A stretch of DNA of 64,000 bases, taken from NCBI RefSeq assembly GCF_048403405.1, contig NZ_CP183129.1. One strand, given 5' to 3'. This DNA is from Escherichia coli (GTDB taxonomy: Bacteria > Pseudomonadota > Gammaproteobacteria > Enterobacterales > Enterobacteriaceae). This document shows, piece after piece, positions 44,385 through 50,661 of the stretch (positions within the stretch are counted from its first letter, which is position 1; every line of letters begins with the position of its first letter). The notes beneath the pieces are model-generated. The model saw nothing but the letters and a program-made list of their open reading frames with translations. It searched no databases and was not told where the DNA came from. The translations under genes were made by a program, and so were the position numbers.

Positions 44385-44428
44385 ACCATACGCACAGAAT
44401 GTGATGTCAGCACTCTGTGCGTCTGCTT

Positions 44429-45127
44429 TTATCGCGGGAAAAAGTACTTTACCTGGAACTCGAAAATATTGCTGTAAAGTAACGAATAATCCAGCGGAAT
44501 AGAGTTACTGTCCACAGCCTGGGTCTGAATTTTAAGTATGGGATCCCGTGGGCTGATCCGTAAAATACTGGCGATTTCTGGGGTAGGAAAAGTAGGGGAG
44601 AAAGTTTCAAAGGTGCCAATGATTTTGATCCCGCATTCGTTCTCAATATACGAAAATTTGGATTTTTGCATATGTGCTACGGTTAAATCAGGAAAACGTG
44701 CCACTGACATCCACGTTTCTTCTAATTGTGCTGCATTATCCTCAATGAATCGCAGTCTCTTTATGTAATAAACCTGCTCACCAGTCACTAAATTCAGCTC
44801 AGTCGCAATAGGGGGAGAAGCATCCTGCACTTCAAATTTCATAATCTGACTTCCTGCCTCCTTGCCGCTTTTATGCGCAATTTCACTGAAGCTGTTCATG
44901 TGATCAATGTGTGCAACAAAATTCTTTTTTTGAATATATGTTCCTGAACCATGCTTTCTATGAATAATTCCTTCGCCTTCCAGCAAGGATAATGCCTTAC
45001 GCAGGGTATTACGCGAAACATTATAACGAACAGCGAGTTCAGCTTCTGACGGCAACAAATCACCAACATGCCATGAATAGCCATTGATCTCGGATTTAAG
45101 TAAGCGGGCAATCTTTTGAAAAATCAC
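44429..45127 (-). CDS. GntR/HutC-family transcriptional regulator of the adjacent PTS operon
   Basis: 232 aa; N-terminal helix-turn-helix (ELAVRYNVSRNTLRKAL); UTRA-like C-terminus; divergent from the PTS genes. Confidence 0.75.
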   Translation of the reverse strand: MIFQKIARLLKSEINGYSWHVGDLLPSEAELAVRYNVSRNTLRKALSLLEGEGIIHRKHGSGTYIQKKNFVAHIDHMNSFSEIAHKSGKEAGSQIMKFEVQDASPPIATELNLVTGEQVYYIKRLRFIEDNAAQLEETWMSVARFPDLTVAHMQKSKFSYIENECGIKIIGTFETFSPTFPTPEIASILRISPRDPILKIQTQAVDSNSIPLDYSLLYSNIFEFQVKYFFPR

Positions 45128-45325
45128 TTTTGCACCTTTTAAGAGCCATTGAAAACAAGGAGTTGAGTCCTGATTGGTTTATCGTATGGTCGAGTCGTTT
45201 AATTATCACCCTGATGTTGAACAACTTTAGTGCTGTATTACTGTGATCAATGTACCAGGACGTATAGCTACTGCGGGATATGATATTTACACAATGTAAT
45301 CTGTTATATACCAGTAAGGAAAAAT

Positions 45326-45637
45326 ATGAAAAAGATATTGTTAGTTTGCGCTGCGGGCATGTCAACCAGTATGCTGGTTAAACGTATGATTGATCATGCT
45401 AACGCTATTTCACTTGAAGTTAATATTTCCGCATTGGCGATTGCAGAGGCTAAAGGGAAAATTAAAAATAACGAAGTTGACGTTGTTTTACTTGGCCCGC
45501 AAGTTCGCTTTCAGAAACCAGAGATTGAAGCTGTTGCACAGGGGAAAATGCCTGTAGCTGTTATCGAGATGAAAGACTATGGCACCATGAACGGACAGGC
45601 AGTTCTTGAATTTGCGATGAAACTACTGCAAGAGTAA
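45326..45637 (+). CDS. PTS lactose/cellobiose-family EIIB
   Basis: 103 aa; phospho-Cys motif LLVCAAGMSTS. Confidence 0.8.
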   Translation: MKKILLVCAAGMSTSMLVKRMIDHANAISLEVNISALAIAEAKGKIKNNEVDVVLLGPQVRFQKPEIEAVAQGKMPVAVIEMKDYGTMNGQAVLEFAMKLLQE

Positions 45638-45750
45638 GAATCTAATATTATTAAACTATTACCTGAACTAACTTTTCACACATCATAAAATGGATATGGC
45701 ATACATGCTTTATTGGGATGTATAAATATCCAGAACAACAGGTATAAAAA

Positions 45751-47412: not shown

Positions 47413-47467
47413 TTTTTTCCTCCAGTGCGATAGCTGGAGGAAATTATTACACTCTTAAGGATAAGTC

Positions 47468-49141
47468 ATGAATATAAAGACGATTAACGTCAGCCTTTTG
47501 TCTTTTTCTATTATTACAGCATTGTTTCCGTTGAACGCGTTGGCAACAAAATTAACCATTGAGCAGCGCCTTGAACTGCTTGAAAATGAATTGTCGCAAA
47601 ATAAACAAGAGCTGAGAGCAACACAGAATGAACTGGGGGTATATAAATCCCGACTTTCGACCTTACAAAAAAGTATTACGGAAAATAAATACAAATCAGC
47701 CTCACTTGCTGAAATATCAGCGACATCTCCCGTCGCTGATAACATCAAAAATGAAAACGGTGAACAGAACTCGTCTGCCGCAGCGCATACTATAAATGGA
47801 TCGCAGCAAGTTGCCGTTATTGAAAGTAAAGGCGACAAAACCACTATCGAAAGCGTGACCCTGAAAGATATCAGTAAATATATAAAGGATGATATTGGGT
47901 TCAGCTATCAGGGGTACTTCCGCTCAGGCTGGGGTACCGGAAATCATGGCTCACCACAAACATATGCAGCGGGTTCTCTGGGACGTTTTGGTAACGAGAT
48001 GAGCGGTTGGTTTGACTTAACCTTAAATCAGCGTGTTTATAATCAGGACGGTAAAACGGCAAATGCGGTCGTTACCTATGATGGCAACGTAGGTGAGCAG
48101 TATAACGATGCCTGGTTTGGTGACAGTGCCAATGAAAATATCATGCAGTTCAGTGATATTTATCTGACAACGCGAGGTTTTTTACCCTTCGCGCCAGAGG
48201 CAGACTTCTGGGTAGGCAAACATAAACTCCCGCAATATGAGATCCAAATGCTGGACTGGAAAACCTTAACCACGGATGTCGCTGCGGGTGTGGGGATTGA
48301 AAACTGGGCACTTGGTGTAGGGCTGTTTGATATGTCCTTAAGCCGTGATGATGTCGATGTTTACTCTCGTGATTTTACGCGTACCAGTCAGATGAATACC
48401 AATTCTGTGGATGTTCGTTATCGCAATATCCCGTTATGGGATGATGCAACATTATCATTAATGGCTAAATATTCCGCACCAAATAAAACGGATCAACAAC
48501 AAGATAATGAAAATGACGACAGTTATTTTGAAATGAAAGATAGCTGGATGCTGACTTCTGTTTTACGGCAAAACCTGCAACGCGATACGTTTAATGAATT
48601 TACGTTACAGGTTGCCAATAATTCCTATGCCAGCAGTTTTGCCAGTTTCTCAGATGCCAGTAACACGATGGCGCATGGTCGCTATTACTATGGTGACCAT
48701 ACCAATGGGATCGCCTGGCGTTTAATCTCTCAGGGCGAGATGTATCTTACTGACAATATTATTATGGCTAACGCGCTTGTCTATTCTCATGGCGAAGATG
48801 TTTATAGTTATGAAAGTGGCGCTCATAGTGATTTTGACAGTATTCGCACCGTAGTAAGACCGGCCTGGATCTGGAATACATGGAATCAGACGGGGCTTGA
48901 ATTAGGCTGGTTTAAGCAACAGAACAAAACACAGCAGGGTGTAACACTAAATGAATCGGCTTATAAAACGACACTCTGGCATGCATTGAAAGTGGGTGAA
49001 AGCATTTTAGGTTCACGACCAGAAATTCGCTTCTATGGAACGTATATCAATATTCTGGATAACGAATTATCGAATTTTAAGTTTAATGAGAACAGCAAAG
49101 ACGAGTTTATGGCCGGCATCCAGGCGGAAGTCTGGTGGTAA
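47468..49141 (+). CDS. sugar-specific porin (LamB/ScrY/BglH family) with N-terminal coiled-coil extension
   Basis: 557 aa; signal peptide; predicted coiled coil at residues ~30-75; aromatic-rich barrel ending ...AEVWW. Confidence 0.75.
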
Positions 49142-49165
49142 TCTATTTTAGTTAAGGAGTTGTGT

Positions 49166-50605
49166 ATGTCAGGATTTAAAAAAGGTTTTTTATGGGGCGG
49201 CGCGGTAGCCGCGCATCAGTTGGAAGGTGGCTGGAATGAAGGAGGAAAAGGCATCAGTATCGCTGATGTGATGACTGCTGGCGCTCACGGTGTGCCGCGT
49301 GAAGTGACAGAAGGCGTTATCGACGGACTTAATTATCCCAATCATGAAGCAATTGATTTTTATCATCGCTATAAAACAGATATTCAGTTATTTGCCGAGA
49401 TGGGATTCAAATGCTTTCGAACTTCCATTGCCTGGACACGAATCTTTCCGCAAGGTGACGAACAGGAGCCGAATGAAGAGGGTTTAAAATTTTATGATGA
49501 TCTGTTCGATGAATGCCTGAAGCAGGGAATGGAACCTGTGGTGACGCTTTCGCATTTTGAGATGCCTTATCATCTGGTGACAAAATATGGTGGCTGGCGA
49601 AACCGTAAACTGATCGACTTTTTCATCCGCTTCGCATCAACGGTCTTCACGCGCTATAAAGAAAAAGTAAAGTACTGGATGACGTTTAACGAAATCAATA
49701 ATCAGGTGAATTTCAGCGAAAGCCTGTGTCCATTTACTAATTCCGGTATCTTGTATTCGCCAGAGGAAGATATCAATGAGCGCGAACAAATAATGTACCA
49801 GGCGGTACATTACGAGTTAGTTGCCAGTGCCCTGGCAGTACAGACTGGTAAATCGATCAATCCTGAATTTAATATCGGCTGTATGATCGCCATGTGCCCC
49901 ATCTATCCTCTGACTTGTGCACCCAACGATATGATGATGGCCACGAAAGCGATGCATCGTCGTTACTGGTTTACTGATGTTCATGCGCGTGGATATTATC
50001 CGCAACATATGCTGAATTACTTTGCCAGGAAAGGATTCAACCTCGATATCACACCAGAAGATAATGCGATTCTTGCCAGAGGTTGTGTCGACTTTATCGG
50101 CTTTAGCTACTACATGTCTTTTACTACGCAATTTTCGCCAGATAACCCGCAACTGAATTATGTTGAACCACGAGATTTGGTCAGCAACCCTTATATCGAT
50201 ACATCCGAATGGGGATGGCAAATTGATCCGACAGGGCTACGTTATTCACTCAACTGGTTCTGGGATCATTTCCAGTTGCCGCTGTTTATTGTCGAAAATG
50301 GATTTGGTGCGGTTGACCAGAGACAAGCTGACGGCACGGTGAACGATCACTATCGCATTGATTACTTTGCTTCCCATATTCGGGAAATGAAAAAAGCCGT
50401 AGTCGAAGATGGTGTTGACTTAATTGGCTACACCCCATGGGGCTGTATTGACCTGGTTTCTGCCGGAACAGGGGAAATGAAAAAGCGCTACGGAATGATT
50501 TACGTCGATAAAGACAACGAAGGGAAGGGAACCCTGGAACGGATACGTAAAGCGTCGTTTTACTGGTATAGGGATCTCATCGCCAACAATGGCGAAAATA
50601 TTTGA
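49166..50605 (+). CDS. 6-phospho-beta-glucosidase (glycoside hydrolase family 1)
   Basis: GH1 motifs: TFNEIN (acid/base Glu) and IVENGFG (nucleophile Glu). Confidence 0.85.
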
Positions 50606-50661
50606 GACTTCAGGAAGATATTACGGAGATATCAGGCTCTGTGATCAGAGCCTGACAATAA

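Follow-up and report, generated by a model that had tools for sequence, protein, structure and literature searches.

A six-gene block between eamA and marB of Escherichia coli is very probably the bgc beta-glucoside operon

Gene content and identity of the block

The window analyzed here is a 64,000-nucleotide stretch of the Escherichia coli contig NZ_CP183129.1. The element in question is a six-gene block of ~6.3 kb at positions 44385-50661, between the core genes eamA and marB. Six intact open reading frames (ORFs) were found between the eamA stop (44384) and the stop of the convergent marB (50662), encoding a divergent regulator, three separate subunits of a phosphotransferase system (PTS), a porin and a phospho-beta-glucosidase. 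We are highly confident that the block is the E. coli bgc locus (bgcR plus bgcE-bgcF-bgcI-bgcH-bgcA), an already known PTS pathway for cellobiose and for aryl-beta-glucosides such as arbutin and salicin, and we use the bgc gene names throughout. We propose that this cassette inserted once, without mobility genes, just past the eamA stop in an early Escherichia ancestor, and that it is now a presence/absence polymorphism. The features of the locus are as follows.

43485..44384, plus strand: eamA, cysteine/O-acetylserine exporter, left flanking core gene (RefSeq annotation; 99.2% nucleotide identity to K-12 eamA)
44385..44428, no strand: left junction spacer with a hairpin at about 44387-44425 (inverted repeat; predicted fold -17.4 kcal/mol)
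44429..45127, minus strand: bgcR, GntR/HutC regulator with winged helix-turn-helix and UTRA effector domain, 232 amino acids, divergent from the operon (NCBIfam GntR/HutC-type)
45128..45325, no strand: bgcR-bgcE divergent control region (cross-genus alignment: conserved islands amid diverged sequence)
45242..45257, plus strand: putative CRP-like site TGTGATCAATGTACCA (pattern match with 2 mismatches)
45279..45284, plus strand: candidate -10 hexamer TATGAT of a putative bgc promoter (read from the sequence; conserved across genera)
45326..45637, plus strand: bgcE, PTS EIIB of the lactose/cellobiose family, 103 amino acids (NCBIfam TIGR00853)
45751..47073, plus strand: bgcF, PTS EIIC permease of the lactose/cellobiose family, 440 amino acids (TIGR00410)
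47101..47412, plus strand: bgcI, PTS EIIA of the lactose/cellobiose family, 103 amino acids (NCBIfam IIA matches)
47468..49141, plus strand: bgcH, LamB-family carbohydrate porin with an N-terminal coiled-coil extension (Sugarporin_N), 557 amino acids (NCBIfam LamB subfamily, E 3e-60)
49166..50605, plus strand: bgcA, GH1 6-phospho-beta-glucosidase, 479 amino acids (NF007154)
50606..50661, no strand: right junction spacer with a hairpin at 50632-50655 (predicted fold -18.8 kcal/mol)
50662..50880, minus strand: marB, right flanking core gene at the end of marRAB (RefSeq annotation; adjoins eamA in K-12)

An earlier note on this DNA had placed a lower-GC block between eamA and marB at 44400-50650 and had read in it a GntR/HutC regulator, lactose/cellobiose-family EIIB, EIIC and EIIA, a porin and a GH1 enzyme. 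The position holds: in K-12 MG1655, eamA (b1533) and marB (b1532) are directly adjacent, convergent and 30 bp apart, without the block. The observation that would have refuted the note, an identical block in MG1655, was thus looked for and not seen. NCBIfam models agree with all of the family assignments. The guanine-cytosine (GC) content of the block is 42.7%, against 48.6% for the window and 47.8% and 48.6% for the 10-kb flanks, and only 8 of 231 windows of equal size lie below it. Sequence that does not belong to the ancestral site runs from 44385, the first base past the eamA stop, to about 50650, close to the limits first suggested; the list above puts the right limit at 50661, the last base before marB, as the junction spacer aligns loosely with the empty site. 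E. coli TUM14771 matches the window at 100% identity, and its RefSeq annotation has the same six genes. The RefSeq labels are generic (for example, ‘PTS sugar transporter subunit IIC’ and ‘carbohydrate porin’).

The block has the features that define bgc, namely a divergent GntR-type regulator, the gene order IIB, IIC, IIA, porin and phospho-beta-glucosidase, and presence in CFT073 with absence from MG1655. What the earlier note missed is that a locus of this kind is already named and experimentally characterized. The original description, in strain i484, is reportedly that of Neelakanta, Sankar and Schnetz in 2009 (Appl Environ Microbiol 75:2284), which is said to refer to c1955-c1960, to name the porin BgcH and to report CRP dependence; its abstract reportedly gives the porin as the fifth gene of the operon. 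A later paper describes a bgc operon of five genes, four of them named, with BgcR as its positive regulator, and growth on cellobiose, arbutin and salicin is the sole phenotype reported for bgc (PMC3585215). A published table enters CFT073 c1955-c1960 as six genes, ‘PTS system, cellobiose specific’, that K-12 and O157:H7 lack (PMC2831201). CFT073 carries the same six-gene block between marB and eamA, and we equate its block with that entry. Divergent GntR-type regulator, separate IIB, IIC and IIA, porin and phospho-beta-glucosidase occur in the published operon and in the window in the same order, and no difference was detected, the comparison being with the CFT073 copy (96-98% identical) and not with the i484 sequence.

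Four cryptic beta-glucoside operons have been listed for E. coli: chb, asc, bgl and bgc (PMC4488073). No other known E. coli locus fits, as chb, bgl and asc all differ from the block. The K-12 bgl operon (bglGFBH) resembles it as a cryptic aryl-beta-glucoside PTS with a GH1 phospho-beta-glucosidase and a dedicated LamB-family porin; BglH is 53% identical to BgcH over the full length, including the N-terminal coiled-coil region, and BglB is 51% identical to BgcA. However, in bgl a single glucose-family EIIBCA (BglF) and the antiterminator BglG take the place of split IIB/IIC/IIA and a GntR regulator, and the operon lies at another locus, beside phoU. The K-12 chb operon (chbBCARFG) shares the split lactose/cellobiose-family IIB/IIC/IIA, with ChbC 37% identical to BgcF, and the ChbB and ChbA structures align with BgcE and BgcI with the active-site Cys and His conserved. 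It differs in its AraC-type ChbR, hydrolase ChbF (a GH4 enzyme), deacetylase ChbG, lack of a porin and substrate, which is chitobiose. The asc operon has a LacI-type repressor and a fused EII.

Gram-positive bacteria offer a further parallel. In the Streptococcus pneumoniae bgu (BguR) and Bacillus subtilis gmuBACDREFG (GmuR) operons, a HutC/GntR regulator likewise lies beside lactose/cellobiose IIB/IIA/IIC and GH1 phospho-beta-glucosidase genes (PMC3585215), and the closest solved relative of BgcA is a phospho-beta-glucosidase, 3PN8/4F66. The same source calls BguR a repressor in its title, whereas BgcR is reported to be an activator (PMC3585215). A porin gene is not expected in the Gram-positive operons, and none is mentioned there.

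Proposed pathway, control region and substrate

We examined the six products for the residues and domains on which such a pathway depends. In BgcE, the motif LLVCAAGMSTS, with the catalytic Cys, lines up with solved IIB structures for cellobiose/chitobiose. BgcI can be aligned with ChbA (1WCR) from one end to the other and retains the His at the position where the 2LRK/2WWV sequence has Glu. BgcF scores 337.7 bits against TIGR00410, above the cutoff of 236. Thus, the N-terminal Cys of IIB, the phosphorylatable His of IIA and a Lac-family IIC, which define the lactose/cellobiose PTS (TC 4.A.3), are all present. BgcA scores 1034.6 bits against NF007154, far above the cutoff of 624, and matches its best solved relative, the phospho-beta-glucosidase 3PN8/4F66, over the full length (E 1.7e-240). 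Its acid/base motif TFNEIN, nucleophile motif IVENGFG and an S..K.RYG stretch align with 3PN8, as expected of a GH1 enzyme; the S..K.Y stretch of GH1 binds the 6-phosphate. BgcH combines PF02264 and PF11471, the LamB beta-barrel and Sugarporin_N, as in BglH-type porins, and ScrY is another sugar porin with an N-terminal coiled coil. A phmmer search of the PDB with BgcH gave no match at E <= 0.001. Orthologs of bgcR carry the Pfam GntR and UTRA domains.

These residues, the gene content, the chromosomal position and the distribution are observed here, and the substrates, the activator role of BgcR and crypticity are taken from the literature. On this basis, a pathway can be proposed. Beta-glucosides would cross the outer membrane through BgcH, a putative role. 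Phosphate would pass from phosphoenolpyruvate via EI and HPr to the His of BgcI (EIIA) and on to the Cys of BgcE (EIIB), while BgcF (EIIC) would carry the sugar in, so that it arrives as a 6-phospho-beta-glucoside. BgcA would then split this into glucose-6-phosphate and glucose or an aglycone. The spacer between bgcR and bgcE would hold a weak promoter dependent on CRP-cAMP, and transcription from it would need the HutC-type activator BgcR. In laboratory culture, the operon is reported to be cryptic.

The bgcR-bgcE spacer was aligned between two E. coli alleles, Citrobacter, Salmonella enterica subsp. salamae, Enterobacter and Kluyvera. It is mostly diverged, with three conserved elements: an invariant TGTGA inside CTGTGA(T/C)CAATGTA(A/C)CA (window 45242-45257), a hexamer TATGAT / TATTAT / TAATAT (window 45279-45284) and an upstream TTGAAC block (about 45207-45212). 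The center of the CRP-like site lies 41.5 bp upstream of the start predicted from the -10 hexamer, which would be near 45291. Together, this putative site and the candidate -10 box would fit a class II CRP-dependent promoter. Downstream of the predicted start lies a near-palindrome, CTGTTATATACCAG (window 45301-45314), which is one candidate BgcR operator.

Several points weigh against the identification with bgc and the control model attached to it. Promoter, terminator and CRP scans returned counts no higher than in shuffled sequence, so the CRP-like site and the -10 box are drawn from cross-genus conservation; a simple consensus promoter scan did not report the -10 TATGAT. The position of CTGTTATATACCAG would be more typical of a repressor site than of an activator site, and an activator is what BgcR is reported to be. 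The link between name and locus is drawn from the gene content in a citing paper, the table entry for CFT073 c1955-c1960 and the reported mention of c1955-c1960 in the 2009 paper. The abstract of the latter is said to describe bgc as prevalent in phylogroup B2 and rare in commensals; in contrast, the block occurs in 46% of the 5426 complete E. coli genomes that we sampled. E24377A, B7A and HS are strains of phylogroups B1 and A. The block was scored present in all three (PMC2831201). The source-database names of the six proteins are generic, none of them containing ‘Bgc’, and a literature search combining marB, eamA and cellobiose returned nothing relevant.

A separate question is whether cellobiose, arbutin and salicin are the sugars for which the pathway is kept. 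The same PTS mechanism could serve another beta-linked disaccharide or glycoside, such as gentiobiose, sophorose, mannobiose or glucomannan fragments, or a host or plant glycoside, with the three reported sugars as side activities after a promoter-up mutation. This would be consistent with bgc being called cryptic and its phenotype requiring an activating mutation (PMC4488073, PMC3585215), and with the BgcR-like HutC regulators including GmuR of the B. subtilis glucomannan operon (PMC3585215). BgcA also scores higher against a streptococcal-type enzyme (3PN8/4F66, 802 bits) than against BglA of E. coli (2XHY, 683 bits), and BgcF falls below the equivalog cutoff for cellobiose IIC (337.7 versus 434.45 bits). 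However, growth on the three beta-glucosides is the only phenotype reported, BgcA lies far above the cutoff of a GH1 6-phospho-beta-glucosidase subfamily model, and BgcH is 53% identical to a beta-glucoside porin, BglH. We regard a different true substrate as unlikely.

Origin and age of the insertion

To place the block in evolutionary context, we scanned 100,044 species-representative genomes with EamA, which yielded 80 loci. In ~70 Enterobacteriaceae species, among them members of Citrobacter, Enterobacter, Klebsiella, Raoultella, Kosakonia, Kluyvera and Buttiauxella and several Escherichia, eamA is followed directly by marB-marA-marR-marC. The 30-bp spacer of K-12 is a terminator hairpin (AAGCCCCGAGATGTCGGGGC) that is kept in Escherichia whittamii, two other Escherichia species and O157:H7, and recognizably in Citrobacter. 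Since adjacency is the rule and the spacer hairpin is shared with outgroups, the empty site is ancestral and the block is a true insertion. The term ‘inserted’ in the earlier note thus had the right polarity.

The reverse polarity, in which the block is ancestral here and K-12 and the other empty strains lost it by deletion, is highly improbable. The block has been at the site for long, as its divergence matches that of its flanks in both comparisons, window strain with CFT073 and E. coli with Escherichia albertii, and real deletions are known, namely a scar in Escherichia sp. MOD1-EC7003 and internal deletions in E. albertii contigs. However, the K-12 and O157:H7 empty sites have the 30-bp terminator hairpin (AAGCCCCG....CGGGGC), which is absent from occupied alleles and common to the E. 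whittamii, other Escherichia and Citrobacter sites, and direct eamA-marB adjacency prevails across the ~70 species. Moreover, in the 5426 complete E. coli genomes the scar allele finds no match longer than 83% of its length; 83% of the query also matches occupied genomes, so only matches beyond this shared part are informative. Deletion in K-12 was rejected on the ancestral spacer at the empty sites and is largely refuted.

Insertion into an ancestrally empty site leaves open the date of the event, and here three lines of evidence indicate that it is old: divergence from CFT073, homologous junctions in E. albertii and the MOD1-EC7003 scar. The block genes of the window strain and CFT073 are 96.5-98.4% identical, and the flanking genes 96.8-99.1%. 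E. albertii has the block at the same eamA-marB site, with left and right junction hairpins homologous to those of the window; between the two species the block is 80-84% identical, most flanking genes 83-84%, and marA and marR 88-91%. In MOD1-EC7003 (L013 10880-10985), the 3' end of eamA runs straight into the final 32 bp of bgcA, followed by the right spacer hairpin. Therefore, this lineage once held the block and then lost it. The earlier note did not recognize that the insertion is ancient and common to E. albertii, and not a recent strain-specific gain.

The left junction hairpin has a homolog in E. albertii and is absent from empty sites, that of K-12 having been checked for it; it is probably a terminator for the convergent eamA and bgcR. 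The right one is kept in CFT073, in E. albertii and in the MOD1-EC7003 scar, and probably terminates bgcA and the convergent marB.

We also considered a recent genomic island, delivered by a phage, integrative and conjugative element or transposon whose mobility genes were later lost. The low GC content would suit such an origin, and the presence of the cassette at differing chromosomal sites in Citrobacter, S. salamae and Enterobacter indicates that the module has moved between genomes. However, a classical genomic island or mobile element would be marked by an integrase or transposase, by a tRNA or att site and by flanking repeats, and none of these was found. The ORF list and RefSeq annotation show no integrase, transposase or tRNA in the block, in line with the earlier report of no flanking mobility genes. 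Its ends have no terminal direct or inverted repeats, att-like sites or insertion sequence remnants; repeats of 12-23 nucleotides there look like chance, the left junction hairpin excepted. An Rfam scan matched no RNA family within the block. In addition, the homology between genera ends just past the stops of bgcR and bgcA, E. coli and E. albertii have homologous sequence at both junctions, and the block has diverged as far as its flanks within E. coli as well as between the species. A recent mobile island was accordingly rejected for its flank-like divergence and absent mobility features, and we hold it to be very unlikely. An early single insertion of the six-gene cassette remains our proposal.

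The bgc block is decaying in E. albertii. An E. albertii contig (L090), 99.4% identical to the type strain over ydeE-eamA, contains a bgcH-bgcA fusion ORF of 678 amino acids (9001-11037). In a second E. albertii-type contig (L091 524-3667), the porin gene comes directly after mgtS, so that ydeE, eamA and bgcREFI are gone in a larger deletion, and bgcA is broken into two pieces.

Distribution, related cassettes and neighboring features

The block is accessory, as the earlier note had stated. Among the complete E. coli genomes, 2494 of 5426 carry the whole block at eamA-marB, and the site is empty in about 2860, with a K-12-type junction in 2480 genomes and an O157:H7-type junction in 388. The right junction is present in 2556 genomes, including those with the whole block; the difference from 2494 points to ~60 genomes with partial or interrupted copies. 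With an eamA-bgc-mar query, 5 of 5434 matching places were on records labeled as plasmids, which may be mislabeled replicons or real partial copies.

The O157:H7 allele has its own history. In O157:H7 Z1831 (L092 391-1733; window 43291-44384 and 50651-50880), a stretch of ~1.35 kb from eamA through the spacer to marB shares about 90% identity with other E. coli and about 96.5% with Escherichia sp. E1V33, whereas its neighbors ydeE, marA and marR resemble E. coli at 98-99%. From these identities, the ~1.35 kb looks like a short patch gained by recombination between species, bringing the empty allele with it, and it shows that presence and absence can switch without mobile-element machinery. A more speculative extension is that the occupied and empty alleles form a very old polymorphism, predating the split of E. 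coli and E. albertii and circulated across Escherichia by short homologous-recombination patches, with the eamA-marB terminator as a recurrent landing site for cargo that lacks mobility genes, bgc included. We put this forward tentatively. If true, it would imply that an operon regarded as cryptic is under alternating or balancing selection.

Outside Escherichia, BgcH orthologs with 75-83% identity occur in Citrobacter, Enterobacter, Salmonella (mainly subsp. salamae) and Kluyvera. The six-gene cassette lies beside a sulfate/thiosulfate-ABC-transporter-like gene set in a Citrobacter-type contig (L005) and just after a GH3 glycosidase gene in Enterobacter. In S. salamae, it has a serine-acetyltransferase-domain gene on one side and a SpoU-methylase gene with a lactate-utilization-like set on the other. 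The Kluyvera variant is without the IIA and GH1 genes. Because cross-genus homology ends just past the bgcR and bgcA stops, the mobile unit is just the six genes.

In three genera, the cassette stands beside cysteine- or sulfur-looking genes: eamA in E. coli, a cysE-like gene in S. salamae (L006/L007) and a cysPUWA-cysM-like set in the Citrobacter-type contig. This is probably a coincidence, the cysE-like and cysPUWA-cysM-like labels having been read from Pfam domains.

The eamA/marB site itself holds unrelated cargo in other species (L023 10898-16998, L046 10898-16041 and L088 10898-16854): an Rhs core element in Citrobacter amalonaticus, an autotransporter with a LuxR-type regulator in Citrobacter sedlakii, and a cluster of 3-oxo-tetronate kinase/decarboxylase, GntP and DeoR genes in Superficieibacter. 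Inserts of 0.6-0.8 kb are found there in a further three loci (L019, L050 and L077). The site looks like a recurrent insertion hot spot.

The chief value of these results lies in correct annotation, since generic RefSeq labels stand at a locus that has a published name and phenotype. The block also provides a clean presence/absence marker beside the mar antibiotic-resistance regulon, and an example of a metabolic module spread and lost via homologous recombination of its flanks and not by mobile-element machinery. The picture of beta-glucoside metabolism is unchanged. The additions are incremental: polarity and age of the insertion, the tally over 5426 genomes, the deletion scar, the O157:H7 patch, the recurrent cargo and the conserved CRP-like promoter.

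Three observations concern other parts of the window. An Rfam match to STnc560 (281.9 bits) at 41674-41887 on the plus strand falls where the K-12 annotation has the small RNA gene mgrR, between dgcZ and mgtS/mgtT. Two matches to RF01766, the cspA thermoregulator 5' untranslated region, at 1749-2141 and 5205-5621 on the plus strand (158.8 and 112.8 bits), indicate two cold-shock-protein genes in the first 6 kb. Finally, yneK (53992-55107, minus strand) is an intact ORF of 371 amino acids, also in TUM14771, and is annotated as a truncated pseudogene in CFT073.

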